Notes: a model not told the origin generated them from the letters alone. Positions 33,491 to 56,612 are shown, numbered from the stretch's first letter. The stretch: 64,000 bases of DNA from an uncultured Gammaproteobacteria bacterium (GCA_964452565.1 CAYVLY010000002.1:22661-86660); one strand, 5' to 3'. Program-made: numbers and translations.

Positions 33491-33514
33491 CCTTCGCTGC
33501 GCTCAGGATGACAC
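33491..33514. repeat. copy B of short dispersed repeat (ccttcgctgcgctcaggatgacac)
   Basis: see 3203-3225. Confidence 0.45.
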
Positions 33515-36008: not shown

Positions 36009-36716
36009 TTAAAATCCTTCTTCGACCCTTAACTCGTTAAGAGGCGCGAGTCGTTGCGTATCAAATACGTCTGGATTATAAACTGTGTAAAAAAGTTCAA
36101 TAAGGCCTTGGGTATCAAGCATAGCGCTCTGTAGTCCCATTCCAACAAGCCCACCCTGAATAATGTTCATCCGTCCCATTAGTGAATCTCTGCGTTCCTT
36201 AAATTTCTTTTCATTCAGCTTTACAACAGAAGCTGGCATGATTGCTGCTGAAAGCTTTGTCATAAATCCCTTTTTCTTATCTGTTGCGGGATCATAAGGA
36301 ACAACAACATAGAACTTCTTCTGCATAATCTCTCCCAATTCAACAAGTTCATTCACAAATCCACGATAATCAATAATCTGTGTTCTCAAAAGATCGTTCT
36401 TTATAGTTCTCTCCTGCTCCTTAAGTGCCTCCATGTATGCATCAATGTTCATCTTTCTTGACTGAACAACAACCTGGATCGGATATTCAAGTCCGTTTAA
36501 GAACTGCATATATGACTGCACTGTTGCTTGTTGCTCGTCTTCTGACTTAAGTGCAAAGTTTATACTTGAAACCATGAAAACACCCCTCAAAGTTCCATCT
36601 TTTAGCACAACTGCATCTTCGCGGATCTCAGCAATGTCCAAAAATCTCTGAGTTGGTGGCCCTGGCTTTGCCTTGGCTAATTTTTTTGATTGCATTTCTT
36701 CCTGCTTTTTTTGCAT
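36009..36716 (-). CDS. VirB4-family N-terminal domain encoded as separate ORF (same frame as 34059..35999, interrupted by in-frame TAA)
   Basis: ...FLDIAEIREDAVVLKDGTLRGVFMVSSINFALKSEDEQQATVQSYMQFLNGLEYPIQVVVQSR... resembles N-terminal region of Gram-positive VirB4 homologues. Confidence 0.55.
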   Translation of the reverse strand: MQKKQEEMQSKKLAKAKPGPPTQRFLDIAEIREDAVVLKDGTLRGVFMVSSINFALKSEDEQQATVQSYMQFLNGLEYPIQVVVQSRKMNIDAYMEALKEQERTIKNDLLRTQIIDYRGFVNELVELGEIMQKKFYVVVPYDPATDKKKGFMTKLSAAIMPASVVKLNEKKFKERRDSLMGRMNIIQGGLVGMGLQSAMLDTQGLIELFYTVYNPDVFDTQRLAPLNELRVEEGF

Positions 36717-37172: not shown

Positions 37173-39047
37173 TTAAAAGCTTATCTTATTATTAAAAGTC
37201 ACGATCGCTTCAATCTCAGCCGCGCTAAGGCTCTCTTCGCCAGTGTTACGCCTTTGTGTAGCGGCATCAGCGACAGTCATTCCTTTTGTAAGCGCCTCCT
37301 GAACTAATGCAATGTATAGATTATTAAGCGGGCTTTTGCGCCAAGCCTGAATTCCACGCACACGATCTTCATAATCAGTTTCTTCAAGTAACTCTAAGGT
37401 ATTGATCATTTTATTGGTTGCTTCTTTTGGATCAGATGACAACCGTCTGAATTCTGCAACCCCCATTGTTCCCAACTCCTCAATCGGACCAATAAGCTTT
37501 GAAACCTTCTTTACATCTGCAACCTTAACTGACGGCTCTGCCTGACGCTTTGGTGGTGCACTTGGTGCACTCAATCGAATTTTGGCTTTCTGAGGCCTTG
37601 CCTTTTCCTGAGCCTGCTTAACCTTTTCTTTATCTACTCTTGCGCGCTGACCCTCAAGCTCCTCTTTCTTTGATCTAGCCGCACTAACCCTTGCCTTTGG
37701 CAAAACTGGCTCAATAGACTCTGTTGGAACCGAGGAAGTAAGTGCAGCATGGCGCTCGTCTAGAACAGTCTTTTCCTGCTTTTTGACATCCACTTTGGGT
37801 TTTACTAACTTTTCTTTTTGTGGCTTGTGCAGCTCTGCATACCCTTTCTTTAGTATCAAAATTGTCTCATGGGATTGCTCTGCGCTCATTCCATACTTGT
37901 CCTGCAATAATGCGTCAGCTCTTTGCTCATTCAATCTTCCTCGAACAAAAGCCTCTGCAACCGATCTTGCTGACTTTTGTGACTGCTTCGCTGACTTAAA
38001 AATCAAACTAAGTTTTTCTGTTGCGCTATCTACAACCTTTAAGAGCTTTTGATCATGGGTTTTATTTTCATACAATCCTTTTTTCTGAAGATCTTTAGCA
38101 TGTGCTTTTACTTCAGCCTCTTCGTGCTCAAATAGATGACCAGAAATAACTGGAACATCAGTTGTAAGTGCATGTGGTACTGCTTTGATTGGAAGCGTCT
38201 CACGCTTTCGAGTTGCCTTTTCTGGTTTTGATTCTAGTTTAGGCCTTTCTACTGGCTCAGGCTTTTTCGGCTCTGGTCTTATTCTGGGAACTTTGGGAAC
38301 CGGAGGTTTTGACTGCTTTGGTTCTTCTGATTCGATCGAATCCGATATTTCTTGATCACTGGCAACCACCCCCTGCCCCTCCTTGGGAATGAGGGGAGCC
38401 GCGCCGCCCTTCTCCTGATTTTTGCGACTGGGTTCTGTAGTCTGTGTTCTGGGTTCTGCATCCTTACCACCCCCAAACCTTTCATCCAACACTGCAAGAA
38501 GCTTCTCAATCTGCTTGTCGTTGAGCTCCAAACCACCAATATTCATTGGCCGCTTCATCAAGGTCAAGGTTGACTCACGGTCGCGCTCCTTTTCAATATA
38601 TCCTTTTGAAAGATAAATAAAACGCTTCATGAGATTTTCTGGAAGCTCTAAGCCAATCTCGCGGGCATATTCTAGAAGCTCATCTTGCAATCCAGGCTTC
38701 TCAATCCTTAACTCAGGATAATTTGCCACATCACCACCCCAGGCCTTTATCGAATCCTCAATCCCTTTGATAAATGCGCTCAAAGGCAAAAGTCTAAATC
38801 CTACAACGTCTGCAGCAATCGCCTTTGCTTTTGTAGCATCAACGCCAAATGCCTTTTCGATAAACTCAGGGATCTGATCAACTTTTACTTGATCATTGAT
38901 GACTGCATCGGATAAATCCAAAAGCTCTTCCAAACGCTCTGGTGGAAGCTTATGCCTTGCCACAACTCCTTCTAGTTGATCAAAGATCTTAATGTCTAGA
39001 AGATAATCGCGAACTCTTGGTAATTTTCTAAATCCTCCGCTTGGCAT
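37173..39047 (-). CDS. hypothetical highly charged/low-complexity protein (624 aa) within T4SS-like operon
   Basis: No TM; K/E/P-rich central region; embedded GC-rich 16-mer shared with 45962-45978. Confidence 0.45.
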   Translation of the reverse strand: MPSGGFRKLPRVRDYLLDIKIFDQLEGVVARHKLPPERLEELLDLSDAVINDQVKVDQIPEFIEKAFGVDATKAKAIAADVVGFRLLPLSAFIKGIEDSIKAWGGDVANYPELRIEKPGLQDELLEYAREIGLELPENLMKRFIYLSKGYIEKERDRESTLTLMKRPMNIGGLELNDKQIEKLLAVLDERFGGGKDAEPRTQTTEPSRKNQEKGGAAPLIPKEGQGVVASDQEISDSIESEEPKQSKPPVPKVPRIRPEPKKPEPVERPKLESKPEKATRKRETLPIKAVPHALTTDVPVISGHLFEHEEAEVKAHAKDLQKKGLYENKTHDQKLLKVVDSATEKLSLIFKSAKQSQKSARSVAEAFVRGRLNEQRADALLQDKYGMSAEQSHETILILKKGYAELHKPQKEKLVKPKVDVKKQEKTVLDERHAALTSSVPTESIEPVLPKARVSAARSKKEELEGQRARVDKEKVKQAQEKARPQKAKIRLSAPSAPPKRQAEPSVKVADVKKVSKLIGPIEELGTMGVAEFRRLSSDPKEATNKMINTLELLEETDYEDRVRGIQAWRKSPLNNLYIALVQEALTKGMTVADAATQRRNTGEESLSAAEIEAIVTFNNKISF

Positions 39048-39069: not shown

Positions 39070-41742
39070 TTACATTTCTCTACGTGCAAGATCCATCTGT
39101 CTTGCCATATTATTTAATTCACGGTTGGTCACTGTACGATCGGCTGCGGGTCTATTTCCTTCTGCCGCTACTGCAGAACGCATTTGATCAACAATATTTC
39201 GCACATTGTCTCTATCAGCATCGGTTTGCGCCGCATTGTACTGCTGTAGCAGTCTATCAACATCTTGACGACTGTATGATTCAGTAACTGCCCTGGTCAC
39301 ATCATTACCTGCCCCTGCATTAACTGCATTTTGAATATGATTTTGGAAATTGACAATAACATCTGGGTTACCTCGTGATGCCTCACGCAATGTTGCCGTA
39401 GCATTGGCATCCATTGAACCATCCGCAGCCACTTGTATTACATCTGTTGCAGCTTCTCCAGACCTTAGACGTGCTGTGTCATACATACGCCTATCATTTA
39501 CGCTGGCTGCAGCGGTACTAAGATCTCGCAATGCAGCCTGAATGTTAGCCTGAGCCGCAGCGTCAATGCCTTCCATATTATGTCCGCCACGTGCAAGCCC
39601 ATTAGCAACTTCTTGCGCACGTGCAGGGTCTGCAACATGATCTGCAGTAATATTCCCAGCATCAACCACACCAGCTCGCACTGCCTCAGCGATTTGATCA
39701 GCAGATGCCTGATCCAGGTTTACATCACCAGTAAATCCAGTAAGTGCCGCGTTCTTAACTTCATCTTTAACACCACGACCAGCCTTAAGCTGATCAAGCA
39801 TGTTCTCCGTGCGCTGCGATCCATCCGGGGCAGTCCATGAACGAACTGTTTTATTCTCAAGCGCCTGTCGAATTTCTGGATCTGCAATATCATCTGCTGA
39901 GAGTTGATTCACCTTAAAGTCGCTATCGGAGACAATATCGTTGAGCTCTTTCTGAGTATCAAAATTGGGATCTGCTGCGACCTTACCATCAATCCATTCA
40001 CGCAAGTTTCCAGCCTTTGTCTTCTTGAAATCCTTTTTCTGCTTGTCATCCGTGAGCAACTCATTTTTGTTCTTGTCAACATGCTGCATAGAAGCTCGCA
40101 TGAATTGCTTGTATGCATCTGGATCCATGTCCTTCTTGAGTTTCTTTCTAAAAGTAGAATCTGTTGTAGCGTCAAGCATAAGAGCTTCTTGCCTTCTTTG
40201 CTCCGATAGAGTCATTGCTTGAGGTTTTCCAGTTCTTGGATCAACCTGCACAGAACCAGCTCTTGCTACACGCTCCTCTATTGTCATTCCCTGAACCTCC
40301 TCACGTGCCTTTTCGCGACCTGCAATATCTGGAGCTGCAGCACCACGTCTCACAGCGCCTGCTGCTCCCATAACACGCGTTCCAACAGCACGGCCAATAA
40401 AGCCACCCCTTTCCGCCATTGCCTGTCCAGCACCCATTAAACCTTTGCTAAGCTTCTGACCAACTCCGAACCTTCCCTCGATCTGTCTTCCAGCCTGCTT
40501 TCCGGTCCATCTAGCTCCTCGATATGCAGTAGAGGCCGGTAGAGTAAGTGCACTTTTTACCATCTTCTTTCCAACGTCTTCGGTTACAAGCTTTCCTGCA
40601 ATATTTCCAAGTTGCTGCGCTGCAGAGCTGGCAACTTTAAATCCAGTCATGATGAGAATCAGGGCGATACCCAAACTTACAAGCTTTTCTGATAGGAAAA
40701 TCTCAGCTAATAGCGTAGGGATATCCTCAGTTCCTTCAAAGTCCAATCCCTCAGATACGGCAATTGGACCTGCTGAGGCCGCTGCCAGACCAAGCCATAG
40801 GAAAAAGGTTAGAATCGGGCCAAGTGTCAAAGCTGCTGTAAACATGTTCCACCACTCCTTATAGCGACCGCCAGCTTCACCAAACAATTGTGTAATACCT
40901 CCCAAGAAAAATGCAATTGGTGACAGGATCACTAGCACCCAGAGAACAATGATTCGATATAAATAAACAACTGCCAATATGATAAGTACTCCTAGGACAA
41001 CCAAGAGCAGCGACAAAACAACAAAGAATTCCGCAAACATTGTATAGAGTTCAACCCCTGTTTGACCTAGAGCTGTTTGGGTGTCCCCCATCACTACAAA
41101 ATCATTGAGCTGGAACAAGCTCATAAAGTTACCGGCAGCTATATCACGCAAAGCATTCACAAAAGTGAACATGATTACCTGCGAAACATCGATCATGATA
41201 AGACAAATCGTTCGACTAAAGTTTACAAGAACAACAGCTGTGAAGAATCGGGGTAGTTGAGCTTCCCACTGGGCCTTTGAGTATCCAATGATTGTCTGCA
41301 GTGCGATAACCAATAGCACAACAATTACAAACATGTTTACAACATCTCTAACTAGCGGCCATCCAATGTCAATTATTGCGCTGTCACCAAAGTTGTTATA
41401 ACCAAGAATCGGGATGATTAATGCACCTAAGACCATTACAATCAGTTTTCCAACGACTGAGAGTAAAACAGCTAGCATTTGGGCTAGTAGTCCAAGAACA
41501 GCCTCAAACAGTGTTGATAGTGAGCTGGAGAGTATATCATCCAGATCTGACGCAAAGGCCACGCTTGGCAGTGATGCCAAAACTACGAAAATAAACGCAA
41601 AAAATACAATGCCCGATCTGTGTATTGTTACCCATTTACACAGTTGCAATGCACCCAATTTTATTTTTTCCATACTGTGAGTATTATAGCACGGCAGAGT
41701 CGTTTTTTTGAGTGTACTTTGTTGGTTTGAGGATAAAAACAT
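39070..41742 (-). CDS. VirB6/TrbL-like polytopic membrane protein with long hydrophilic C-terminal extension
   Basis: Signal/TM at N-terminus (start may be internal Met), ~8 hydrophobic helices over first 380 aa, then 500-aa Ala/Asp/Arg-rich domain. Confidence 0.5.
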   Translation of the reverse strand: MFLSSNQQSTLKKTTLPCYNTHSMEKIKLGALQLCKWVTIHRSGIVFFAFIFVVLASLPSVAFASDLDDILSSSLSTLFEAVLGLLAQMLAVLLSVVGKLIVMVLGALIIPILGYNNFGDSAIIDIGWPLVRDVVNMFVIVVLLVIALQTIIGYSKAQWEAQLPRFFTAVVLVNFSRTICLIMIDVSQVIMFTFVNALRDIAAGNFMSLFQLNDFVVMGDTQTALGQTGVELYTMFAEFFVVLSLLLVVLGVLIILAVVYLYRIIVLWVLVILSPIAFFLGGITQLFGEAGGRYKEWWNMFTAALTLGPILTFFLWLGLAAASAGPIAVSEGLDFEGTEDIPTLLAEIFLSEKLVSLGIALILIMTGFKVASSAAQQLGNIAGKLVTEDVGKKMVKSALTLPASTAYRGARWTGKQAGRQIEGRFGVGQKLSKGLMGAGQAMAERGGFIGRAVGTRVMGAAGAVRRGAAAPDIAGREKAREEVQGMTIEERVARAGSVQVDPRTGKPQAMTLSEQRRQEALMLDATTDSTFRKKLKKDMDPDAYKQFMRASMQHVDKNKNELLTDDKQKKDFKKTKAGNLREWIDGKVAADPNFDTQKELNDIVSDSDFKVNQLSADDIADPEIRQALENKTVRSWTAPDGSQRTENMLDQLKAGRGVKDEVKNAALTGFTGDVNLDQASADQIAEAVRAGVVDAGNITADHVADPARAQEVANGLARGGHNMEGIDAAAQANIQAALRDLSTAAASVNDRRMYDTARLRSGEAATDVIQVAADGSMDANATATLREASRGNPDVIVNFQNHIQNAVNAGAGNDVTRAVTESYSRQDVDRLLQQYNAAQTDADRDNVRNIVDQMRSAVAAEGNRPAADRTVTNRELNNMARQMDLARREM

Positions 41743-42426: not shown

Positions 42427-44331
42427 TTATTCGAGGGTTCGGCAATCTGAGCTTGAAAGTGTATACACTTCCCCATCCTCTACCTCGAAGCACAGTGCAT
42501 ACGAACCATCTGTGTTTTCGTGACACAGGTCCGAAGTACTTGAGCTCGAAGCACAGTAATGGTTGTAGATCGCCCACTCAGATGAGGTGCGCATGGTCAT
42601 TCGATACCAGCCGTCGTAAAGCCCGTACCAAGCCATGTCTGTTTCGCTGTCATATTCTGCGAGGTCTGCGCTGCTGTATCCCCAGCCGGAATCGACACCA
42701 ACGCCGGTTGCTGCGACGTCATTGCCGTTGACGGATGAACTGAAGGTCTCACTGACCTGCAGGCCAATCCAAGGACCATCAATGCGAACCCATGATAGGC
42801 CCTCGCCAAGATTATCAGCAAGATAATCGCTGGGATCATCCTGCTCTCTCCCATCATCTGAAGGATCATCTTGCACGTCAGGCTCTCCAGTGTCAGGATC
42901 GTCCTGATGATCATCTGGCTCATCCAATGGATCACCAGTATCATCGGGTTCGTCGTCCTGTCGTTCATTGCTGTAGTCGCCTGTGTCCTCCGGCTCATAG
43001 TCCTCAGGTTCATCGTCGTAGTCATCCGTATCTTCCCATTCACCAGTGTCACCACTGCCGTCCCACGATTCTCCGCCGCAGTAGAGTAGATCGTCATAGG
43101 TAATGCACCCGAGTGAGCGATCACAGTCCCCGACTGACCCTTGGATATCACGGACTGCGCCATCATCGAGTAGGATGACTTCGCGGGCCCAAAACCCAAG
43201 CGCCAAGTAGGTGTCCCAATCAAAAATTGGGTATGCAGCTCCCTGCATGATGACGTATACGTCTGAGGTTGAGGTCTCTGTGACGAGCGTGCCCGCGCGC
43301 AATGTGGCTGTTTCGACACTCTCGTAGTAGTAGTCGAAGAGCTCAGTGTTGGTTGAGAGGTCGTCGTATGTTGAGGCGCTGATGCCCCAGCTTTTGAGTA
43401 TGGCCTGCCAGTGATCAGACGGTACGCGGTAGCGCAAGTAGTCCTCTCCATCCTGTGCGCCAACAAGTAGCCACACTACCCCCTCATCATAGACAGCCGT
43501 GATCTGAGTCTCATCGCTGAAGTTGGCGCCAGTCATGTAGCATGCGAGCTCTGTCTCGTCGACATATGCCACCTGTGAAAAATCCCAGTTGTAACTCCAG
43601 AATACACCCTCATCCTCAATGAGATGCTTGTAGCCATCATTGAGCATGTACACGTCAGGTGAATTCGGCGTCATGACCAGGGTTCCATCTGGATGCCAGA
43701 CAGGTGTTTCCATCCGAGATGAGTAGAGGTGTCCGCCCGACAGGTCACAGACGAACTCAGAGGTGAGATATGCGTCATAGTTGCCGGTGTTGGCATCATA
43801 GGCCTCGATCATCAGACCTTCGATCGACGTACCCTGAAGGCCATCATCTGAGGCGTATCCACTATGGCGACCGATGTGAAGATGGTCGCCAGATGAATCG
43901 CCTGTGGTGCCCTCGATGGCAATGAGCTGACCCTGCGCTACTTCCTCGCCGCTCTGGATCAGTACGTCATCAAGGTGCGCCAGGATGATGTAGGTGCCAT
44001 CTGACATATCGATGTTTACGTGGATACCAAATCCACTTGATTCATCGCTGTGCACATAGGCGGTGCCGCTGATAGGCGCGTAGATGTAGTCATCGCTGTC
44101 ATTAGGTGTATCCAAATCCAGATCGTAGCGTGTTGAGGTGTAGGTGTGCGAGTATTCGCCGTCTGCGCCTTGCGTACACAGCGAGGTGTAGCCATAGGCG
44201 AAAGGCATCTGAATGGTCACAACATCCTGACCACCTCCACCAAAGCCCTCGCAGCCATGTGCCAGCGCGAAGGTCATGAATGTGATGAAAACGATGAGAA
44301 ACGAGTAAAGGGCGTGACGAAAGTTGAACAT
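42427..44331 (-). CDS. secreted M23 (LytM/lysostaphin-type) metallopeptidase with acidic low-complexity C-terminal region; start at Met 44331
   Basis: Signal peptide MFNFRHALYSFLIVFITFMTFALA; M23 motifs YAPISGTAYVH, GFGIHVNID, ILAHLD, GDHLHIGRH; GC content visibly higher than backbone. Confidence 0.75.
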   Translation of the reverse strand: MFNFRHALYSFLIVFITFMTFALAHGCEGFGGGGQDVVTIQMPFAYGYTSLCTQGADGEYSHTYTSTRYDLDLDTPNDSDDYIYAPISGTAYVHSDESSGFGIHVNIDMSDGTYIILAHLDDVLIQSGEEVAQGQLIAIEGTTGDSSGDHLHIGRHSGYASDDGLQGTSIEGLMIEAYDANTGNYDAYLTSEFVCDLSGGHLYSSRMETPVWHPDGTLVMTPNSPDVYMLNDGYKHLIEDEGVFWSYNWDFSQVAYVDETELACYMTGANFSDETQITAVYDEGVVWLLVGAQDGEDYLRYRVPSDHWQAILKSWGISASTYDDLSTNTELFDYYYESVETATLRAGTLVTETSTSDVYVIMQGAAYPIFDWDTYLALGFWAREVILLDDGAVRDIQGSVGDCDRSLGCITYDDLLYCGGESWDGSGDTGEWEDTDDYDDEPEDYEPEDTGDYSNERQDDEPDDTGDPLDEPDDHQDDPDTGEPDVQDDPSDDGREQDDPSDYLADNLGEGLSWVRIDGPWIGLQVSETFSSSVNGNDVAATGVGVDSGWGYSSADLAEYDSETDMAWYGLYDGWYRMTMRTSSEWAIYNHYCASSSSTSDLCHENTDGSYALCFEVEDGEVYTLSSSDCRTLE

Positions 44332-44411
44332 GGTAACCTCACGTTCTAAGGGATTGTGAGGCGGTGATCCATTATTGGTTGACCGTCTCTGCCTACATAG
44401 GAGTACGTTAT

Positions 44412-44572
44412 GGGACTGTTTCCGAATACTCTTTTGAGAATAAATCTCAGAAATTCGAGCGGATTTCTTCAAAGATTTTTGAAGGAATGCCGGGGCATTA
44501 TTGAAAAAATATTTGAAGAAATATGCCGGATTTATGAGGTTTAGGCCAAAAACGGTATTTGGAAACAGTCCC
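44412..44572. repeat. 17-bp inverted repeat pair (gggactgtttccgaata / tatttggaaacagtccc) enclosing ~127 bp upstream of M23 peptidase gene
   Basis: 16/17 complementary arms at 44412-44428 and 44556-44572. Confidence 0.3.
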
Positions 44573-45017
44573 ACTGTAGACAGAGACGCTCTTTAGTTCG
44601 CAGGCGCTTGAGGACGCGAGTTTCACGCGCCCGCTCACTAAAGAAAATAGAAGTTGTACGGACATGTGTGCTTCCCACTCCCCTAAAGAAACACATTTTG
44701 AAACGTATCGGGCCACAGCATCGTTTGCCAATGCGCAAAGTTCTCTCCTCTTAATACACATTAGGTTACGGGTGGTGCAGTCGCAATACGTTAATCAAAC
44801 CTGGCTCGAGATTTGGTTTGATCGGGTGCTGTGCAGAATGCAAAGCTGCGAACGTTCTATATCTATTGCACTCGAGATCGCGGTGGCTCGCAATAGGCAA
44901 AATGGGTGAAAATGGCAAAAAAGGTGTTGAAGGGCTTCAACACCTTTTTGATTCGCGCCGAGCCTTAGCTCGAAATCCTGTCTAACGCCCTTTGACACCC
45001 AATGGGGATAAGTCAAA

Positions 45018-46733: not shown

Positions 46734-46770
46734 AAAAGAACCCTCACAAGGAGGGTTCTTTCTTTTTTTA
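46734..46770. terminator. bidirectional terminator (gaaccctcacaaggagggttc + T9) shared by lipoprotein gene and giant gene
   Basis: 8-bp stem followed by tttcttttttta. Confidence 0.55.
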
Positions 46771-46825: not shown

Positions 46826-49800
46826 TTACTCTTCAACTGTTATAAATCCATCATAGTAAATCCACGGATCATAGCCTGCATAAAATTCTGGGTAGTAGTC
46901 ATAGCTGCATTCACTGTCAGATGCCTGACTGCTCAAATCTCCATACGCGTCAAAGCATCCGGCTTCGTCGCAAACTCCAGCGCACCATCCCCAGTTGTCT
47001 CGGACATGAACACGTGGTTGATAGATACATGATTCACCGTCATTGCTACATGGGCTGTTTGTTAAGTTGCCATTGTCATCAGTAACACACACTGGCAATC
47101 CACCTGGATCTGTACATCGATATGAGTGCTGGTATAAGAAGTAGTTTGGATCACATGAATCTCCAGTAAGCCCCCACTCTGTATCAAGACTACACTTAGA
47201 TAGTACTGTAGTATCCTCCTCGCCACCATCAGTACCGTCTTGCAAACCACGGTGGTTTTTATAGTAGTTCTCGTCATCATCAGATCCTGACTCATCACCA
47301 TCCCCCCAATCCACAATCACCCTTCGAAGCGGCAGCTGATCCTTATCTGCTGCAGCATAGAACTTGATAGTTGCACGGTAGAATCCTTCACTACCCTCTT
47401 GGTCTCCAGTGCTTTGGTTGTTCAATGTGATGGCACTCTCAGTTCCCTCTGAACAATACCGAGCTCCACAATCATCAGAGTCTACTGCCCAAACAGTCGG
47501 AGGTGTGCCAGTGTCACGAATATCATAATCATATTCGGTGTAATCCGTTGTATCATAGGTTGGATCTCCAACATCTGACAGATCAGATACTGCGGTATAA
47601 ACATCGTTATCATCGATATTACCTGGCCAAGTCCACATACTTCCCAGTCCGAGAGGATTTGCAAACAACTGGTTTATACGATCAAACACATCGTCCAAAT
47701 CCTCTGAATTCGTATCCCATGGAGTTGCCTCGCTCGCATCCGGAATGTACTCAAAGTAGATATATGATCTCCCATCTGGAGCTGTAGGATCATAACTAGT
47801 TCGCTCATAAAAGTCTGTGGCGTTGTACAGTTCATAATCACATACCTCGTCATTACCCTCATCATGGATGGAAATCTTAGAGGTCTTTGATGTCCCACCT
47901 GCGCAGGACGCAACTATTTCTGGACCATATGAGTAAATATCGTTTTGATCAAAATCACTGTATTGTTCAGGATTTATGGCTGATCCAAATGGTGAGTTGG
48001 TTGTTTCATACGTATATTGCAAGGCGGTCTCTCTTTCTGATATCACCTCTTCTGCAGCTGCATAGAACATGCTAGTTAATGGTGCGGTTACACCGTCGCT
48101 AGATGAACCGGTCTGCAGTATATCTCTACATCCAGGATATGGTGTATATAGATCTGGAATGTCTAAGTATCTATAGCCCTGTGTTCCAGAATCAGAATAC
48201 CCATCGCTTCCTCCACTAAAGGAAACCATATCCCAAATACTCATATCACGCTCAATTCCAAATGACACACAGTCGTCATAGTCACTCAGCATTAATGTAA
48301 ACTCTTCATAGTCAGTAGGATCATCATCACTTTCATATTCATTCCCGCTGTCAAATGCGCGGTGTGACCATATATAATAGTAAGTTTCAGTATAATTACT
48401 GCTCTTCATGCTACCCTCTTGGTCATAGTTCCAGCCTTGACCACGTATTTTACTGTCCTCACTTGATAAAAAGTCGTCATAGCAGGACTCCCCCTGTTCT
48501 CCATCATCCTCACTCGCATGAATGGCGTCTTCTGGAATACACACATATGGACAGTCATTCTGAGCTTCAACACATGCCTGAGCAGCCATGTCAGTCCAAT
48601 TCAATGTACTTCCGTTATCAATGTCATAATCATCGTGACCACACCTTCCCAAGATGGCAAAGTACCCTTCTGGACATGTGAGATTACCTGCGCATTCATT
48701 TATTCCTGTCCATTGATTACCTTTATTACAGCTGCTTTCTATTTCAGCACAGGCAACACCCCCGCCACTGTAACCATATTCATCATTGTAATTCTCACTT
48801 AACAAATCTAGGTATGGGCTCACATATGTACACATGTACATGTCATTGAAAAATCCTGCAGTCTTGTACTTAGCATACAAGTCAGTTGCACCTGATAGCT
48901 GATCAACTGGGAACCATGTCAGACATGCTCCAGTGTATTGATCGCCTTCAATATTTAATCCTGTATCTCGCTCCAAACAGTATCCCTCAAGTCCGTATAG
49001 TGTATTCTCCTCAGTAATACGATCGCAAGTTGCATCTGCCTCTGCTGTAGTTGCATCAGGACTGATACAGTCAGATGGATCTGTACATATTGCACCAGCA
49101 ACCGGACTTGTTGCTGAACAAATCCCAATGAATGATTCAGCCAAGTATGAGGAAGATGGGCTTAGATATACAGATACTCCACCACTATTAGTAACCTTTG
49201 CATATGAACAAACACAGTCCTCAGAGGCAGCACAGGTCTCCACCTGTCCAAAGCCAGACAAGAACGACCGAGGAGTAGCTGCCCCGAAGCCAGTGCTAAG
49301 AAGTAATGACTCTTCCATGTCGGTTGTAGTGCTCAGCGTGGATGCCAATGAATTTGTGTAACTCCACTCACTTATAACACCCTCACCGAACGGACTATTT
49401 ATTTCAGGCTGTGCTCGGCAAGCCTGACCTTCGTACATTGCCTCTTCAAATGGCTCGCCATCCATTGCCAAGAAACATGAACCGCTATAACAGCTTCCTT
49501 GTTTATATGCGACAGATGTGAAGCAGCTCTCGCCAGACTCACAACTCAAGTCGCTCAAATCACAATAATCACCTTCGATAACACAGGTTCCAGAGAGACA
49601 CTCTTCGCCAGAGGCGGTGTCACAATCATCATCGTCATTACATACATCCGCTCCAACTGTGTAACAGACACCTGGGACACACTCAGCGCCTGAAGTTTCA
49701 CAATCATCTTCGTCAGTACATGCAGATCCATTATCTGTACAGTATCCGACCGCACAATCCTCTGAATATTCATCAGTACATGCCCCTGCTATGTATCCAA

Positions 49801-52800
49801 GCCTGTAGTCTTCTTCACTTTCATCCTCTGTCACACAATCTCCATCACCACATTCTGAATCATCTTCACATGGCTCACCATGGTAGCTGGTCCAATCAGA
49901 ATCATCTTCATCATTACTACTTGATAGATCACAATATCCAACTGGTGCTGCAATATCGATCTGATTTAGGTGCTGCAATGGTAGTACATCTGGAACTGAG
50001 TATCCTGAGTATTCTTCTCCATACCAAGTCACATCACGTGATACATACTTGTCTGCATCTAGGACTACGGCTGGATCATCTGGATCCCATGCGCTACAGA
50101 ATGATGGATGACCTTCAGCTGAATATGCAGTGCACAGATCGATTCCATCACAAATTGTTCGATATCGCCCTGCGTCTTGATCCCAAATGGAGTAGGAACT
50201 TGAGCAACTCAACCACTCAGAACACACGCGATCTTGATTAACACTAATTACACGATTAGTGTCATTTTCTAATCGCTCCATTTCATCATATGTTACTGCA
50301 AAGCCTTCTGTATAAGAGAATGTGAGAACTGGGATTTCGTCATAACAAGTACCTGAGACAATATCCCCTGTGTAACCTTCATAGTTAGGGCAGTCCTCAT
50401 CTGTGTAACATGACTGACCTATTGCATAAACTCCATCATCAGTTGAACCAACAAGGTCTATATTTGCATACAAACATCGGCTTGCACATGGATCGTATGT
50501 GGTGATCCCATCTGGAAGAACGATCTGTGAAGTTGTCTCACTGGTACAATCAATCGCACTTACAAGTGAGAATGGCTCTTCACCCAAAACCTCATCAGCA
50601 TGCGTACTTACAACATAAGACGCGCTTGCATTGTATTCCAAGCTTGTGTCGCCATTATCATAGAACAATGTGCATCCTTCCTTTTGTGAAACTTGACCAT
50701 TGCATCGCTGTGATGAAAGCAAGCTATCGTCATCAAGCTGATCGTCATCAATATAGTAATACATTGTTCCGTCAGCATCTCCATAGAACTCATCATCATC
50801 AACATCAAGTGGATCCTCAAATGCACTACATCCATCATACTCGGCCTCACAGTGCCCAACCCATCCATCATAGTCTTCATCACCATTTCTCCAAATTCCA
50901 CTTTCTGTTCCTCCGATTAGATAATCACTGTCAGTGATATTACAAGTTCCATAGTCATATGTGCTGGAGATACAATCTGAATCTTTAGAACAAGTTACTG
51001 AATCATCATCAGAACATGTTCCTGTTCCATAACAGAAATCACTTGTTCCCTCACGGAACCAACCAGTGTAGCTTTCGCCACTAATAGTCACATCAGTCTT
51101 GTATTCACATTCATGACCGATCGGAGCCTTAAAGTACCAAGTTCCTTCATTGGTTGACTCAAACGCTCGACAGAACAATTCATCGTGACTACATAGAATG
51201 TCATCGTAGTCATCTGGTTCGTTTAGATAGTAAACACTTGTCCATTCTAAAATCTTTGAATGATCCATGCTCATCGTCGGCTCTCCAAGCTCAGTACACC
51301 CTGCAACATCTGATGATGAGCACTCAAGATCTTCACTGTAGATCATGTACACATCTGTATCAGCCTTCACGAATGTTGCATCTGGTCCGTAATTCAAATG
51401 GTAAAGCTCTGGGATATTTGTTTCGTCTGAGATATCAGCCTGTGGGATAAACCAATCCTCAAAATCAAACTGACAAGAATTCTTTCCGGCAATAATTGTA
51501 CAAAGCTCAGGCGAGTCTGTTTCAAATGCTGTACGACCAGAATTGGCATACATATAACAACTTGTACGATCTGTAGCATAGTCTGCCTCACCATCGCCGC
51601 CATCTTCTACATCAAGGTTGTAGCAAGTCGCATTGTAAACAGCCACATACTCAGAATCTGACTGCTCTGTTGTGTAGTAATCAGTACACCCCACTGCATC
51701 TGACTCACACAAATCACGGAATGATCTTAGATAGTAGGTTGTGCCATTTTGATCCATATACTCCTGACATCCAAGATGGAATTGAGCAGAAGTCTCACCT
51801 TCCCATGACTGATCACACTCACCTGGAGTAGTCCATGAATCTTTGATGAGGGTTAGCTCGTCCTCACCTTCGCGCAACGTAACATTATCAATATAGAAAT
51901 CTCCGGTTGAATCTGGGACAAACGCCAAGACAGAACCAGCTCCAAAGGCTGAATAGTCATTAGCGTTCATATCAAACGGACCAATAGAGTAATAAGTCCA
52001 TTCGCTTGTAAGCTCAGCACTTGGCACTGAACCATCAACTAATGAATCAATGCTAATTGATGAAGTTGCTTCTATATCAAATCCAACCTGGACATCTGTA
52101 TCTCCCTTTGCCCAGAAAGTTAATGTATAAGTCTTATCAGTGTAAAGCTCATTTTCAAGTGTTCCGCAGTACTGATCTTCATATGAAACAGTACAGCTGC
52201 CGCCCAAAGTTCCGGTTGATGAATCACATCCAGCCTCGGTCGCACAGGCTGATCCATAATCATATATGTGACTCCATACAACCTCACCTTCTGACTTTAA
52301 TGAGTGTCCATCCACTGCAACTGATTCGTTTGAAAGTGTAACAGCGCTTGCGCTATCTGCCTCCCAATTTATTAATGATCCTGTTTCAAATAGATCTTCA
52401 AGTACAAGTCGACTGTTAGCACTGCGTCCACCTGTAAATTCTCGACAACCATTTACTGAATCTGAACACTCTGTACTTTCTACGTTGTATCCATAGAATC
52501 TACAGAATGCTGCACTAGAATCATAATATCCAGCAGCTGCATCACACGCTGCCTCCCAGTCAGTTGCGTCCTCGCCCACCAGATCTGTTAGCCGATAAGA
52601 AACACATGAATCGTTGATTGTAACTGTGTCATCCCAAACGCGGTAGTGGATACCTCCTCGAGTGTCATAGAACTCTCTACACTCAGGGTTTGTGAGAATG
52701 TCTGTGTGTTCATCACAGTCTTCATTGTCTGTATCAATTACTGCATCTCCATCAGCATCATCAGCACAGGAAACTCCATCTACACCCGTGACCCAATTAG

Positions 52801-55800
52801 TACAAGGCGCTAGGCCAGGCCGTGTGTCAGTCTCACCGCTAGTTGCATATGTATAGTTATAGTAAGCACCATCATCAAGGTCTGATTCGATTAGTCGCCA
52901 AGTTCGAAGCTGATAGCCTTCCTCATCTGATCCTTCCCATGTGTAGAAGGTCGCTGCCTGATCTCCTGAGACATTTGCGCGTGCCTGACTTTCAGTCACG
53001 CAAGTTCGTAAGTATGTGTAGTACTCCAATCCCTCAGTGTCTAGATTTGTGAATTCTGTACATCCAACATCGCTTTCAGTACATGCTTCTGCGCTTGATG
53101 GAATAAAGTAAAGTGGGAAATCACCATAAGGCTCATATGTTGTAGCCTCCTGTCGATACGTGTCATATCCATCACAAGAACTTGGGCATTGATCTACCAA
53201 GCTCACAACCGCAGTCACACTTGGATCGCCATTAACTGGAGTAAACTCGCCACAGCCCGCATCCTGCTCAGAACACATGGTTGCATAGCTTGCACAATCT
53301 GCAGCATCATCATCTGAACCAGTACATCCAAGATAGTCAGGAGCGACCTTCATGTAAACAGACGATAGTTCCTCGCTATAACCATCAGCATATGCATCGG
53401 TGTCAGCGTCCTGCTCAAGCATGATGTCATCCATATAAACATCAACCCCCTCCAATGTGAGCTTAGCGTAAATGTCTAAAGATCGATCAGTAAGCGTTGG
53501 TGTTGTAAATATGCACTCAAAGCGGCTGTAACTATCCGAATCATTCGGATAAAACTCTATACTAATCTCATCCCCTGATGCGCTACATGTGATACTACAA
53601 TCATCACCAGTACAACTTTCATTAACGCTCTGATTCGTCATCGTTAGCGCATTACCCCCCTCATCTGCAAATGAAAGTGTTGCATATCCCTGATCACCAG
53701 CTAATGCATAACCATAAAATGATAATGCGTAGTAACGAGTCTGATTAAGAACAATGCCATACCGCTCAACCATCTCTCCGCTATTATCCATAATATGCAG
53801 CGCATCTGCTCCTGACCGTACATAATCGCCATCTGTGTCGTAAATATCAGTACCACTTATCACCCACCCATCTGGATGGCCATCTTCATCTTCATCGGTT
53901 TCAAAGCTTGAGTTTGAAAGAATGTTAAGCGTGGTCTCTGAACCTCGCGAGTAAAGCTCCTCACATCCAGCATCTTCTGACTCACAGGATTCAACCTCAG
54001 AATTAACATAAAGTCGATTTTGATAAGCATCAGTCTCCTCATCAGCAGATTCAACATTAATAATTGTAGGCCAGTCGTAAACATCGTCAGTATCTTCCTT
54101 TTGTGTTGCATACCACATGCATCCCATGTTTGATGCGCTACAATCACCGTAATCAATTGTATTTGTTAAAAAGTCCACTGTGATGCCAGCTTGATTCTCA
54201 AACGACATACAGCTCGCATAGTGCTCTGGACATTCTGATCCGCGGAACTTCCACGTGTTTTGCTCGCGCACACAATAGCCATAGCCTCCATCACAATTTC
54301 CATTTGTGTCTTCTGAGATACAACTTTGAATATCAACACACTCCTCTGCTCGCTGGTCTGTTCCTGGAGCAGACAAAATCTGACCATACGCCAGTGTGCG
54401 ACATTGTGTCTCTGGAAACTTAAGAACCCAGTTTGGATCAACCAAGTGACACCATGGATGCTCATCATCAAGTTCACCGTCACTATTACATGAGTAGAAT
54501 CCATCTATTACCTCCTGCAATGTTACTGGATCTGTTTCAGAGTTGTGATCTGACTCTGCTGCCATCTCCCAACCAATTGAGATGATTCGCGCCTTTCGCA
54601 ACTTAACGATGTTGCTATGACAGAATCCATAGGTGTAACACTTTGGATCTTGGTTACGAGCTGTATCAGCTGAAGGAATTAAAGGCCAACCGCCGTCGAC
54701 ATAGCCCTCATCAATTGCATCCTGCAAGGTTATAGTGTTCCCTGCCCTTGAAAGTGCAATGGCTGATACAAAAGATGAATCAATCGCACAGTTATATAGT
54801 TGAGCAGATGCCCCACGAGAAACTGACGGACAAGTTGCAAGCTCAGACAATAAACTATAATCAGTAATCTCAAGTGGCTTAAATGCTGTAACGCTCTTAA
54901 ATATCTCTGCAATGCGACTACGTGAATACTCAAAAGAGCTATCTGGATCAAATGGGTCAGAATCATCAAACACAATATCTTCAAAAAGCCCGCCTTGGAT
55001 TTTGTTCATCAACTCTGAGAACAGTGTGTTTGTAAAAATGGTTCCTGCGTTTATTCCGATCGAAATCAATGTGTCTGAGTTTGACATCAGTGCAGTGCTC
55101 AAATTAAATGGTAGTTCCTTCTGAATCTCCATTGCCGTTTCAAGTTCATCTCTAACCATCCCAGCTGAGGTTTCAATCTGACCAGTAATATAGTGTTCAA
55201 TTGCAGAAAAGCCATCATTGGCAATAAGTGAAGTCTCTTCAGTCTGTGCCTCACTAAACGACTGGATTACTGCATACATTTGCAACTGAGTTACAGCTGA
55301 CATCTCGTTTACATCTGGATCAAATGCTTCTGACATTACTGAAAGTACCATTGCAGTCTTTTCCTCAGGCTCTAACTCCTCTGCACTTAGGGATGCGAGA
55401 TATGCTGACCAATTATCTTTAATGCTTGGATATTCAAAACTAATCTCAGGCGCTACTGCCATGCCCTTTATACCTTGGCGAATTGCCTGCAAGACTTCTG
55501 GATCTGTTGGCAGATAAATATTCAGAGTTGGGAACATCCCATCCTCTAAATTATCAATCGCAACTTCATTATAAATTTCGGAAAGCACTCGTGCTCCAGC
55601 GTACTTAAAGTAGTCAGATGGTGGCAATGAATTAAAAAGTGGACTTTCGGCATTTCCACCAGAGGCTATCCATACAGCAGAGTTATATGCAAGCTCATTT
55701 GCCATCATTGAAAGCAGGTTGACCATCTCAGCCGAAAGAGCTGCTATTAACGCATCTTTTAGCTTTACTTTTACCGTATCGATAACATCATCAGCGGTCA

Positions 55801-55954
55801 TCTGCGCGATAAGATCCGGGCTAGCGGTCACAAGTTGAGCATGCGCTTTTGGCGCAATCGATACCCCCAAACTTAAAGCCAAGAGCACAGCAAGTAGGCT
55901 GCGCGTCAATTTATTAAAAACCTTGCGGTGTTTCATATTGCTCCTAATGATCAA
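46826..55954 (-). CDS. giant secreted cysteine-rich surface protein (3042 aa)
   Basis: Uninterrupted 9.1-kb ORF, N-terminal signal peptide (LLAVLLALSLGVSIAPKAHA), very high Cys/Asp/Gly/Tyr content with recurring CxxDxDC-type spacings. Confidence 0.7.
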   Translation of the reverse strand: MIIRSNMKHRKVFNKLTRSLLAVLLALSLGVSIAPKAHAQLVTASPDLIAQMTADDVIDTVKVKLKDALIAALSAEMVNLLSMMANELAYNSAVWIASGGNAESPLFNSLPPSDYFKYAGARVLSEIYNEVAIDNLEDGMFPTLNIYLPTDPEVLQAIRQGIKGMAVAPEISFEYPSIKDNWSAYLASLSAEELEPEEKTAMVLSVMSEAFDPDVNEMSAVTQLQMYAVIQSFSEAQTEETSLIANDGFSAIEHYITGQIETSAGMVRDELETAMEIQKELPFNLSTALMSNSDTLISIGINAGTIFTNTLFSELMNKIQGGLFEDIVFDDSDPFDPDSSFEYSRSRIAEIFKSVTAFKPLEITDYSLLSELATCPSVSRGASAQLYNCAIDSSFVSAIALSRAGNTITLQDAIDEGYVDGGWPLIPSADTARNQDPKCYTYGFCHSNIVKLRKARIISIGWEMAAESDHNSETDPVTLQEVIDGFYSCNSDGELDDEHPWCHLVDPNWVLKFPETQCRTLAYGQILSAPGTDQRAEECVDIQSCISEDTNGNCDGGYGYCVREQNTWKFRGSECPEHYASCMSFENQAGITVDFLTNTIDYGDCSASNMGCMWYATQKEDTDDVYDWPTIINVESADEETDAYQNRLYVNSEVESCESEDAGCEELYSRGSETTLNILSNSSFETDEDEDGHPDGWVISGTDIYDTDGDYVRSGADALHIMDNSGEMVERYGIVLNQTRYYALSFYGYALAGDQGYATLSFADEGGNALTMTNQSVNESCTGDDCSITCSASGDEISIEFYPNDSDSYSRFECIFTTPTLTDRSLDIYAKLTLEGVDVYMDDIMLEQDADTDAYADGYSEELSSVYMKVAPDYLGCTGSDDDAADCASYATMCSEQDAGCGEFTPVNGDPSVTAVVSLVDQCPSSCDGYDTYRQEATTYEPYGDFPLYFIPSSAEACTESDVGCTEFTNLDTEGLEYYTYLRTCVTESQARANVSGDQAATFYTWEGSDEEGYQLRTWRLIESDLDDGAYYNYTYATSGETDTRPGLAPCTNWVTGVDGVSCADDADGDAVIDTDNEDCDEHTDILTNPECREFYDTRGGIHYRVWDDTVTINDSCVSYRLTDLVGEDATDWEAACDAAAGYYDSSAAFCRFYGYNVESTECSDSVNGCREFTGGRSANSRLVLEDLFETGSLINWEADSASAVTLSNESVAVDGHSLKSEGEVVWSHIYDYGSACATEAGCDSSTGTLGGSCTVSYEDQYCGTLENELYTDKTYTLTFWAKGDTDVQVGFDIEATSSISIDSLVDGSVPSAELTSEWTYYSIGPFDMNANDYSAFGAGSVLAFVPDSTGDFYIDNVTLREGEDELTLIKDSWTTPGECDQSWEGETSAQFHLGCQEYMDQNGTTYYLRSFRDLCESDAVGCTDYYTTEQSDSEYVAVYNATCYNLDVEDGGDGEADYATDRTSCYMYANSGRTAFETDSPELCTIIAGKNSCQFDFEDWFIPQADISDETNIPELYHLNYGPDATFVKADTDVYMIYSEDLECSSSDVAGCTELGEPTMSMDHSKILEWTSVYYLNEPDDYDDILCSHDELFCRAFESTNEGTWYFKAPIGHECEYKTDVTISGESYTGWFREGTSDFCYGTGTCSDDDSVTCSKDSDCISSTYDYGTCNITDSDYLIGGTESGIWRNGDEDYDGWVGHCEAEYDGCSAFEDPLDVDDDEFYGDADGTMYYYIDDDQLDDDSLLSSQRCNGQVSQKEGCTLFYDNGDTSLEYNASASYVVSTHADEVLGEEPFSLVSAIDCTSETTSQIVLPDGITTYDPCASRCLYANIDLVGSTDDGVYAIGQSCYTDEDCPNYEGYTGDIVSGTCYDEIPVLTFSYTEGFAVTYDEMERLENDTNRVISVNQDRVCSEWLSCSSSYSIWDQDAGRYRTICDGIDLCTAYSAEGHPSFCSAWDPDDPAVVLDADKYVSRDVTWYGEEYSGYSVPDVLPLQHLNQIDIAAPVGYCDLSSSNDEDDSDWTSYHGEPCEDDSECGDGDCVTEDESEEDYRLGYIAGACTDEYSEDCAVGYCTDNGSACTDEDDCETSGAECVPGVCYTVGADVCNDDDDCDTASGEECLSGTCVIEGDYCDLSDLSCESGESCFTSVAYKQGSCYSGSCFLAMDGEPFEEAMYEGQACRAQPEINSPFGEGVISEWSYTNSLASTLSTTTDMEESLLLSTGFGAATPRSFLSGFGQVETCAASEDCVCSYAKVTNSGGVSVYLSPSSSYLAESFIGICSATSPVAGAICTDPSDCISPDATTAEADATCDRITEENTLYGLEGYCLERDTGLNIEGDQYTGACLTWFPVDQLSGATDLYAKYKTAGFFNDMYMCTYVSPYLDLLSENYNDEYGYSGGGVACAEIESSCNKGNQWTGINECAGNLTCPEGYFAILGRCGHDDYDIDNGSTLNWTDMAAQACVEAQNDCPYVCIPEDAIHASEDDGEQGESCYDDFLSSEDSKIRGQGWNYDQEGSMKSSNYTETYYYIWSHRAFDSGNEYESDDDPTDYEEFTLMLSDYDDCVSFGIERDMSIWDMVSFSGGSDGYSDSGTQGYRYLDIPDLYTPYPGCRDILQTGSSSDGVTAPLTSMFYAAAEEVISERETALQYTYETTNSPFGSAINPEQYSDFDQNDIYSYGPEIVASCAGGTSKTSKISIHDEGNDEVCDYELYNATDFYERTSYDPTAPDGRSYIYFEYIPDASEATPWDTNSEDLDDVFDRINQLFANPLGLGSMWTWPGNIDDNDVYTAVSDLSDVGDPTYDTTDYTEYDYDIRDTGTPPTVWAVDSDDCGARYCSEGTESAITLNNQSTGDQEGSEGFYRATIKFYAAADKDQLPLRRVIVDWGDGDESGSDDDENYYKNHRGLQDGTDGGEEDTTVLSKCSLDTEWGLTGDSCDPNYFLYQHSYRCTDPGGLPVCVTDDNGNLTNSPCSNDGESCIYQPRVHVRDNWGWCAGVCDEAGCFDAYGDLSSQASDSECSYDYYPEFYAGYDPWIYYDGFITVEE

Positions 55955-55964
55955 ATTACTCTTA

Positions 55965-56612
55965 TTACTCTAATAACTGAAACTCTTCGCTGCTTTCCAA
56001 GTCACCCATAACTTCTAGAATCAAAGCCTCCAGATCTTCATCTGGTATTTCGGCAACCATTTCTGGATCTGCACCAGCTGTAACTAACAACTCCCTAATC
56101 TCCTCAGCTGTTAATTCTCTAATAGCTTCCTGAATGTCTGACAAAGATGTTCCTGAGCTTGGAGTAATCTCAGCTGCATCAGGTGCAACGTCATCAAACA
56201 GGTCGGTTGTCGAAGCTATGTCAGCATCAGAACAATCCTGACCCGCAGCACAGTCCACATCAGTACCAGCCAATATCTCTGTATCATCGTTGTATCCATC
56301 GCCATCTGTATCCATCAAATATGGTGACGATCCATATACATACAACTCATCATAATCTGTGAGAGTATCCCCGTCCGTGTCCTTAAGCTGCTGCTCCATC
56401 ATTTGGATAGTAGCCTCTTGCTCTTGTGTGAAATAAAACTCGCCCGAGTATTCAATGAAAAACGGACTTGCAATGTGGCGGACTAAATAAAATCCTCCGA
56501 GTACTAATGCAACGCACCCGGCAATAATAACAAGCGTTAAAGAAGCCTTTTGTTCTTTAGTAAACGAAGGCTTAGTCTTACGAATAACAATCCGCTCTCT
56601 TGGTTGATTCAT
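55965..56612 (-). CDS. membrane-anchored protein with thrombospondin type-3-like Ca-binding repeats, immediately upstream of giant gene
   Basis: N-terminal TM; DTDGDTLTDYDE and DTDGDGYNDDTE repeats; 10-nt gap to giant ORF. Confidence 0.55.
   Translation of the reverse strand: MNQPRERIVIRKTKPSFTKEQKASLTLVIIAGCVALVLGGFYLVRHIASPFFIEYSGEFYFTQEQEATIQMMEQQLKDTDGDTLTDYDELYVYGSSPYLMDTDGDGYNDDTEILAGTDVDCAAGQDCSDADIASTTDLFDDVAPDAAEITPSSGTSLSDIQEAIRELTAEEIRELLVTAGADPEMVAEIPDEDLEALILEVMGDLESSEEFQLLE

Follow-up and report, generated by a model that had tools for sequence, protein, structure and literature searches.

What is the role of a secreted protein of some 3000 residues, extremely rich in cysteine, that is encoded at the head of a type IV secretion system (T4SS) locus in an ultra-small bacterium? 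This question is raised by one gene in a stretch of 64,000 nucleotides deposited under the name of an uncultured Gammaproteobacteria bacterium (GCA_964452565.1, CAYVLY010000002.1:22661-86660). The whole stretch is referred to as the window, positions are counted from its first letter, and the product of the gene is called the giant protein. This analysis revealed that the giant gene is real and that its family is specific to Uhrbacteria and their close relatives (Patescibacteria, with an ABY1-type locus). The giant protein is a collinear, non-repetitive scaffold of fixed length, unlike the typical adhesin, which is repetitive and evolves fast. This scaffold is under strong purifying selection and has one variable region. 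Judging from these sequence features, we consider it reasonably probable that the giant protein is a structure for surface or host contact, made rigid by disulfide bonds and retained at the cell.

Patescibacteria depend on host cells, and the family of giant proteins is a concrete and widely conserved candidate for the component by which their T4SS makes contact with the host. Epibiotic growth of the one genetically tractable member of the Patescibacteria requires the T4SS (reviewed in PMC12857230). Even if it should be unrelated to the T4SS, a non-repetitive chain of 3000 residues and about 117 conserved cysteines represents a considerable cost to a genome of about 1 Mb. For structural biology, and for work on extracellular oxidative folding in ultra-small bacteria, such a protein is out of the ordinary. 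The initial annotation of the locus had placed the protein among the giant surface proteins of episymbionts. This kind of protein is indeed known for the candidate phyla radiation (CPR; PMC4736985), but the position of the locus at the head of a T4SS block and a convergent lipoprotein gene had been overlooked.

Results

The giant gene and its product

The open reading frame (ORF) runs without interruption from 55954 to 46826 on the minus strand. The single 9.1-kb ORF of the initial annotation is therefore real, but the length of 3042 residues assigned to its product has to be revised. The mechanical start is a TTG, and an ATG lies 18 nt further in, at 55936, with an AGGAG ribosome-binding site 5 nt before it. 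Public gene calls give exactly the product of 3036 residues, which is identical in the NCBI and Logan assemblies, two independent ones. The start codon, its ribosome-binding site and the public calls together establish a giant protein of 3036 residues, and the gap to the stop codon of the partner gene upstream thus amounts to 28 nt, not 10 nt as first counted. Neither internal stops nor DNA tandem repeats were found in the gene.

The composition agrees with the first description of a giant, Cys-rich protein with a signal peptide that is rich in Asp, Gly, Tyr and Thr. The 132 Cys make up 4.35% of the residues, five times the local background (mean 0.84% in the 35 other genes of the window), and are accompanied by 11.2% Asp, 10.1% Ser, 8.1% Glu, 7.8% Gly, 7.8% Thr and 6.7% Tyr, with 4.1% for Lys and Arg combined. 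The predicted Sec signal peptide and its cleavage site were read off the sequence, no predictor being used. In a transmembrane (TM) scan it is the sole hydrophobic segment of the protein, and the homologues all begin alike. No LPx[TSA]G motif was found anywhere in the chain, nor a C-terminal TM helix or any further one, and a motif scan showed that the GGxGxD (RTX) and YD motifs are absent. The C-x-x-D-x-D-C spacing, which had been singled out initially, is present five times, but a hairpin of the form C-x5-9-C-aromatic is commoner: it occurs 21 times along the chain, and nearly every one of its Cys is 100% conserved. The GC content is 0.52 at 46001-48000 and 0.51 at 42001-44000, compared with 0.42-0.45 elsewhere in the window; these stretches encode the conserved C-terminal part of the giant protein and the acidic one of an M23 peptidase described below.

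A collinear family with conserved cysteines

A word-indexed search listed at least 120 homologues, which are about 2900-3600 residues long, 28-62% identical and mostly full-length; those that carry a name are recorded as 'hypothetical protein' of Candidatus Uhrbacteria or Patescibacteria. A scan of one genome per GTDB species yielded 368 stretches encoding relatives, and a profile search with the core region returned 1155 clusters at 50% identity, 1058 of these at E<=1e-30. Among the best 150 core matches, the core always occupies approximately residues 400-700, in proteins about 3000 residues long or in fragments of such proteins. A single giant gene was seen at each locus examined, and a search for tandem paralogues (P0096 and P0101) on a single contig was negative. 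The family is absent as such from Pfam and NCBIfam, an NCBIfam scan of the giant protein gave no match, and no description of the family was found in the literature on Uhrbacteria with cysteine-rich, giant or large proteins. Contigs of metagenome-assembled genomes with an Uhrbacteria-type locus (L011, L012, L015, L020 and others) are often titled 'uncultured Gammaproteobacteria bacterium' and look mislabelled.

These results leave a negligible probability that the gene is an artefact of assembly or annotation, either a concatenation of genes or a frameshifted pseudogene. The same protein is called in two independent assemblies, it has hundreds of collinear full-length homologues, and its gene is free of the internal stops and tandem repeats mentioned above. 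Concatenation in the assembly, a concern raised in the initial annotation, was ruled out by the comparison with giant proteins of related genomes that had been proposed along with it: the homologues, the GTDB stretches and the clusters are all collinear, and the homologues keep this architecture at 28-62% identity.

Across 93 aligned full-length homologues, conservation reaches at least 90% for 117 of the 132 Cys, and the number of Cys in the mature protein is even in 103 of 109 homologues. The simplest reading of this conservation and of the even count would be about 60-66 disulfides in the giant protein. Enzymes that form disulfides outside the cytoplasm (thiol-disulfide oxidoreductases) are widely encoded in CPR bacteria (bioRxiv 10.1101/335083).

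Architecture of the giant protein

The domain boundaries are given in Table 1. In an AlphaFold2 model built from a 31-sequence alignment, the N-terminal domain is all-alpha, at low confidence (pLDDT 56); this prediction and that of the core rested on shallow alignments, and trimmed sequences were used for both. A PDB sequence-profile search with the N-terminal domain gave 0 matches, and Foldseek against the PDB gave none at E<=0.001, which is a weak test for a model of this pLDDT.

The core is the most conserved part of the chain, with a mean identity of homologue residues to the giant protein of about 0.6 (50-residue windows). Within it, residues 396-505 form a small alpha/beta domain of about 110 residues, which is predicted with a pLDDT of at least 93 and holds invariant charged residues (Lys, Arg, Asp and Glu). 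Foldseek against the PDB returned no match for this confidently modelled domain, which would represent a novel fold, lacking a counterpart in solved structures. An identity of the core as SRCR domain, suggested by a match to PIT54 (9h0m_E, E 4.4e-6), was rejected: the Cys columns do not align, the score is the sum of four partial matches to about 50 residues, each with an E of 1-1600, and Foldseek found no SRCR.

Repeat detection, as proposed in the initial annotation, revealed a chain that is non-repetitive apart from one duplicated unit. Profile self-comparison showed one internal duplication only, residues 644-898 versus 1150-1420, with an hhalign probability of 94%. Each of the two units starts with a 'C-x6-GC-x-E-F' hairpin, which is followed by a jelly roll resembling CBM_4_9. 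This Pfam family (PF02018) matches residues 1262-1324 of the giant protein with an E of 9.2e-5 and 23.3 bits, versus a cut-off of 25.9. It is matched by 14 of 16 homologues (best E 2.6e-10), many database homologues carry a precomputed PF02018, and the family profile matches the carbohydrate-binding module (CBM) of a Thermotoga laminarinase (PDB 1gui) with an E of 7.6e-4. The earlier view that no domain of the protein can be named from sequence is thus superseded by two CBM_4_9-like jelly rolls. The variable region stands out in the alignment of 93 homologues by an identity to the query of 0.09-0.22 and a gap fraction of 0.2-0.5.

The TSP3 partner and the convergent lipoprotein

The partner protein encoded upstream has a basic N-terminus, a TM helix at residues 26-44, a conserved Cys pair and an acidic C-terminal tail. 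Its two loops of the thrombospondin type 3 (TSP3) kind read DTDGDTLTDYDE and DTDGDGYNDDTE; one TM helix and two loops are what the initial annotation had described as a TM-anchored protein with two Ca-binding TSP3-like repeats. Pfam TSP3_bac (PF18884) matches it with an E of 3.6e-4 and 20.8 bits, the cut-off being 25. A set of 73 partner orthologues has a conserved DTDGD..DYDE..DTDGDG core, and two TSP3 loops are present in 58 of them; the precomputed TSP3 matches in orthologues are labelled 'faint' or 'weak'. The partner gene is the immediate upstream neighbour of the giant gene in 75 of the 78 loci whose sequence extends far enough. Across 73 orthologues, a median of about 4 nt separates the two genes, and the pairing is kept in a distant locus (L006) where all other neighbours differ. 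The proposal of a dedicated partner is borne out by this adjacency and by the narrow gap. The two proteins are probably made together, via translational coupling.

On the other side of the giant gene, a convergent ORF with a lipobox (about 190-290 residues) is found directly downstream in 34 of 49 loci. Its position is conserved and its sequence is near-unrecognisable between genomes, with pairwise E values of 1e-5 to 1e-7 at best. This lipoprotein may co-evolve with the variable region of the giant protein.

The fast evolution of a small adjacent gene recalls immunity genes, CBM-like modules are usual companions of glycoside hydrolases, and the invariant charged residues of the core at 396-505 could be a catalytic site. 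The giant protein might accordingly be read as a secreted enzyme that degrades glycans, or as a polymorphic toxin delivered to the host. We regard this explanation as very unlikely. Searches of Pfam, NCBIfam and PDB profiles returned no catalytic or toxin family, the C-terminus is conserved and not polymorphic, and the lipoprotein gene is convergent with the giant gene rather than co-directional.

The T4SS locus

The genes that follow the giant gene on the same strand (Table 1) agree with the description of the ABY1-type T4SS of Patescibacteria, with a VirB4 ATPase of the monoderm (MPF_FATA-like) type that scores above the NCBIfam cut-off, a TrsD-like protein, and comF, recG and ksgA nearby. 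In chromosomal T4SS of the ABY1 class, ksgA, comF and recG occur near virB4, and a role of TrsD has been described (PMC12102498). The same survey of Patescibacteria T4SS detected no adhesin, and unannotated genes were left grey in it (PMC12102498). Beyond ComF, the window encodes RecG, RadA and a VirB2-like pilin.

Of the 35 Uhrbacteria loci with at least 9 kb of downstream sequence, 29 have the M23 gene, the first of the block, 1.3-9.4 kb past the giant gene and in the same orientation. Counted from the giant gene, the remaining T4SS block then follows as far as the sequence extends. In metagenomes, counted from the gene for the 7-TM protein, the genes for M23, 7-TM, o624, TrsD, VirB4, o180 and ComF are collinear essentially everywhere, and o624 and o180 in particular are collinear in the block at nearly every related metagenome locus. 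These synteny counts are bounded by 10-kb flanks. In three distant lineages (L167, L159 and L155; 24-33% identity), the giant gene directly adjoins the 7-TM gene, with no M23 gene between them. The adjoining giant and 7-TM stretches are L167 1-12874, L159 26-648 and L155 146-10464. The giant ORF of L167 encodes at least 3252 residues with 5.8% Cys and 24% identity to the giant protein of the window, and the ORF-to-ORF gap is 10 nt; the arrangement in L159 and L155 is comparable.

With regard to individual members of the block, the GTG at which the M23 ORF mechanically begins is probably not its true start: an N-terminus with a lipobox, FALAHGC, results if translation begins at the ATG at 44331. 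Over its last 250 residues, the M23 protein is extremely acidic and has further Cys. The product of o180, encoded at 33514-34056 (-), weakly matches the Rv0361 C-terminal domain. An assignment of the 7-TM protein to VirB6 was rejected, since none of 11 family members has a Pfam match and the hhalign probability with TrwI of R388 is 0.9%.

The adjacency of giant and 7-TM genes in L167, L159 and L155 bears on the strictest form of a link with secretion. The giant protein would here be a T4SS component, attached via its N-terminal domain to the 7-TM platform or to the VirB2-like pilus in the manner of VirB5/TraI (DUF4141), while the other 2700 residues would form a tip adhesin. DUF4141 (PF13605) is the sole Pfam family matched repeatedly by the N-terminal domain (over the full length, CBM_4_9 is matched repeatedly as well), and four of 31 N-termini show sub-threshold matches (E<=1, the best being 5.4e-5); the N-terminus of P0007, for example, matches with 20.9 bits and an E of 2.3e-4, at a gathering score of 30, and the giant protein of the window has no match. 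Several homologue N-termini read 'AQ-x-VV-T/S-DP...'. In conjugative transposons of Bacteroides, DUF4141 genes lie between traG and traJ (PMC10434189), and the window holds a VirB2-like pilin gene at 24150-25502. This reading, which overlaps with that of a host-contact module discussed below, nevertheless appears quite unlikely. The DUF4141 matches span only the signal peptide and about 15 residues and stay below the gathering score, the 7-TM protein is not demonstrably VirB6, the hhalign probability of the N-terminal profile with TrwJ (VirB5) of R388 is 0.5%, and the low-confidence N-terminal model has no Foldseek match. Membership of the N-terminal domain in VirB5 was rejected on the TrwJ comparison and on the lack of a sequence or fold match in the PDB, which leaves a functional analogy only.

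The pilin gene itself, at 24150-25502 (+), encodes a fusion of 450 residues of unusual architecture for a pilin: a signal peptide, a Cys-rich N-terminal region, a two-TM T4SS_pilin domain (PF18895, E 2.2e-10) and a C39-like peptidase, with 13 Cys overall. Directly upstream of it, at 23496-24140 (+), lies a gene for a TM-anchored thioredoxin/DsbA-like protein (Thioredoxin_4, E 1.8e-14), in which FSNS replaces CxxC. This protein was rejected as the oxidative-folding enzyme of the giant protein, since the CxxC motif is missing. It resembles the thioredoxin-fold protein TraF, likewise devoid of CxxC, which the F plasmid needs for pilus assembly. These two genes are preceded at 21233-23494 (+) by genes for two proteins, one of 345 residues with a C-terminal TM helix and one of 405 residues with an N-terminal TM helix and a weak TolB-propeller-like match, which may belong to the same T4SS sub-cluster.

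How firm is the link between the giant gene and the T4SS?

The giant gene is present at 9 of the 23 T4SS loci that have 10 kb of upstream sequence, and several observations weigh against a role of the giant protein in secretion or in host contact. At six T4SS loci, the 10 kb upstream are free of a giant gene, and the distant homologue loci L005 and L006 have the pair of giant and partner genes with no T4SS within 6 kb. In most Uhrbacteria, the giant gene and the T4SS block are set apart by a terminator-like hairpin and by variable genes over 1.3-9.4 kb. The genes upstream of the pair in the window, namely ksgA, tsaC/sua5, a NUDIX gene, an epimerase gene, a release factor gene (prfA-like) and groEL, recur in this order in other genomes; as housekeeping neighbours such as ksgA and tsaC are equally conserved, synteny is not in itself a functional sign here. 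Moreover, the giant protein's own CBM match and the TSP3 match of its partner fall below the Pfam cut-offs, and the results with TrwJ and with the N-terminal model tell against this role as well.

A structural protein of the envelope, such as an S-layer-like protein or a cell-wall scaffold, would fit several of these observations. Such a protein would serve the cell's own architecture and take no part in host contact or secretion, and inherited synteny would account for its proximity to the T4SS. Extreme collinear conservation, fixed length and near-single-copy behaviour are more like those of a core structural gene than of an adhesin, the surroundings are of the housekeeping type (groEL, the prfA-like gene, tsaC and ksgA), a terminator-like hairpin follows the giant gene, and L005 and L006 have no nearby T4SS. 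However, the hypervariable residues 2400-2800 and the fast-evolving lipoprotein point to an external target that changes, the CBM-like modules suggest ligand binding, and the giant gene adjoins the 7-TM gene of the T4SS in distant lineages. Furthermore, the family is limited to one lineage of Patescibacteria, whereas the need for an envelope would be general. On balance, we consider a purely structural role unlikely. As for the synteny, the link between the giant gene and the T4SS is recurrent but not obligatory, and part of it could be inherited.

Two IS200/Y1 transposase-like ORFs, at 45101-45682 (+) and 41792-42577 (-), lie on either side of the M23 gene, in the interval from the giant gene to the T4SS block. 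At the equivalent place in another genome (L004, 16942-17532), a Y1_Tnp-like ORF is found.

Table 1. Coordinates of the giant gene, the segments of its product, its immediate neighbours and the T4SS block in the window.
Feature	Position	Strand	Evidence or remark
Giant protein gene	46826..55936	-	3036 aa plus stop codon; ATG start at 55936
Predicted Sec signal peptide, residues 1-33	55838..55936	-	AHA before Q cleavage motif, read from sequence
Helical N-terminal domain, Cys-free, residues 34-368	54833..55837	-	Residues 1-368 lack Cys
Most conserved Cys-rich core, residues 369-690	53867..54832	-	Conservation alignment
Unit 1, residues 644-898	53243..54007	-	Cys hairpin and CBM_4_9-like jelly roll; starts with NSSFE motif
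Unit 2, residues 1150-1420	51677..52489	-	Cys hairpin and CBM_4_9-like jelly roll
Densest Cys region, residues 2002-2173	49418..49933	-	CxxDxDC-type spacings; 21 Cys in residues 2001-2200
Hypervariable, indel-rich region, residues 2400-2800	47537..48739	-	Alignment of 93 homologues
Conserved C-terminal domain, residues 2801-3036	46829..47536	-	VDWGDG motif; ending W-x-YYDG-x-I-x-V
Partner gene, 215 aa	55965..56612	-	N-in single-pass membrane protein, directly upstream of the giant gene
Terminator-like hairpin, 11-bp stem	46735..46761	.	Between the two convergent genes; listed on the + strand
Lipoprotein gene, 226 aa	45990..46670	+	Lipobox LVGC; convergent with the giant gene, just past its stop
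M23 peptidoglycan peptidase	42427..44574	-	Pfam PF01551, NCBIfam; likely ATG start 44331
7-TM protein, 890 aa, with long hydrophilic tail	39070..41742	-	TM scan; VirB6-like candidate by topology and position
o624, 624 aa, Cys-free, charged, K/E-rich	37173..39047	-	Conserved member of the T4SS block
TrsD / VirB4 N-terminal-domain-like protein	36009..36716	-	NCBIfam VirB4_plasma E 1.4e-8, TrsD E 4.6e-5
VirB4-family T4SS ATPase	34059..35999	-	NCBIfam conju_CD1110 E 6e-103, 345.5 bits (cut-off 325); Pfam P-loop_TraG
o180, 180-aa TM protein, and ComF-like phosphoribosyltransferase	32781..34056	-	End of the block

Discussion

Having weighed these alternatives, we favour a surface or host-contact structure, for which the following mechanism can be proposed. 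By its sequence, the giant protein is exported by the Sec pathway, and once its signal peptide is cleaved it lacks any anchor of its own in the membrane or cell wall. The exported chain consists, in this order, of the helical domain, the core, the two units of hairpin and jelly roll, more modules that are presumably knotted by disulfides, the hypervariable region and the C-terminal domain. The disulfides are expected to turn it into a rigid, protease-resistant and non-repetitive extracellular scaffold. The partner, perhaps together with the lipoprotein, could retain the giant protein at the cell surface in a Ca-dependent manner; bridging by Ca is proposed because the giant protein and its partner are both very acidic. 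The CBM-like modules may bind glycans and the variable region may set the specificity, so that both would make contact with glycans or proteins on the other cell.

Within the surface and host-contact reading, a functional coupling of the giant protein to the T4SS, as its element of contact or adhesion, is a possibility to be taken seriously, even if we incline slightly against it. A more detailed version is rather doubtful and is put forward as a tentative proposal: the giant protein, the TSP3 partner and possibly the lipoprotein might constitute the missing host-contact module of the ABY1/Uhrbacteria T4SS. In this proposal, a disulfide-rigid, glycan-binding tip or adhesin would be fixed through its helical N-terminal domain either to the 7-TM platform or to the VirB2-like pilus, and would decide which host cell is engaged.

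Comparison with known systems

Among known systems, a surface protein encoded with a monoderm-type T4SS (MPF_FATA) is exemplified by PrgB of pCF10. The giant protein would resemble it as an exported surface protein that joins two cells, and a PrgB-type adhesin has been reported as missing from the T4SS of Patescibacteria (PMC12102498; PMC12857230). Unlike PrgB, the giant protein has no LPxTG motif and no Pfam domain of a polymer adhesin (CBM_4_9 only), it is rich in Cys and three times larger, and its gene is not always in the T4SS operon. The likeness to VirB5/TraI (DUF4141) consists in a signal peptide followed by a helical domain, in the vicinity of a candidate VirB6-type gene and in weak DUF4141 matches. 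In contrast to these proteins, it is 13 times larger, and there is no significant similarity of profile or fold.

RTX and BIg adhesins are composed of Ig-like repeats, tens of them in tandem, leave the cell by type I secretion via a C-terminal signal and are poor in Cys. The giant protein differs from them in its N-terminal Sec signal, in the absence of RTX motifs and tandem repeats, and in its 4.35% Cys. What it shares with such adhesins (SiiE, LapA, MpIBP) and with the giant proteins of Omnitrophota (PMC10066038) is that all are giant, acidic and likely Ca-associated surface proteins of attaching bacteria. With CBM4/9 modules, such as CBM4-2 of the Thermotoga laminarinase (PDB 1gui), it has in common two modules of the jelly-roll type with a profile match, for which glycan binding is predicted only. 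Unlike CBM4/9 enzymes, it has no attached glycoside hydrolase, and each module contains extra conserved Cys.

A close precedent is the large, Cys-rich extracellular proteins of CPR bacteria that are thought to act in attachment and were recorded in Peribacteria (Anantharaman et al. 2016, PMC4736985). Both groups occur in host-dependent, ultra-small bacteria and consist of large proteins with a signal peptide and several percent Cys, which lack functional annotation and for which attachment has been proposed. The Peribacteria proteins, however, have a mean length of about 1650 residues and are multi-copy (a 14-gene cluster) and strain-variable, whereas the members of the giant family are about 3000 residues long, share one collinear layout in which about 117 Cys are near-invariant, and were seen in one copy at each locus examined. 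Unlike the Peribacteria proteins, the giant family has a dedicated TSP3 partner and is situated at a T4SS locus. The kind of protein is thus already known for CPR bacteria, and the giant family differs in its size, the strict collinearity, the number of invariant Cys, the absence of repeats, the TSP3 partner, the convergent lipoprotein and the T4SS neighbourhood.

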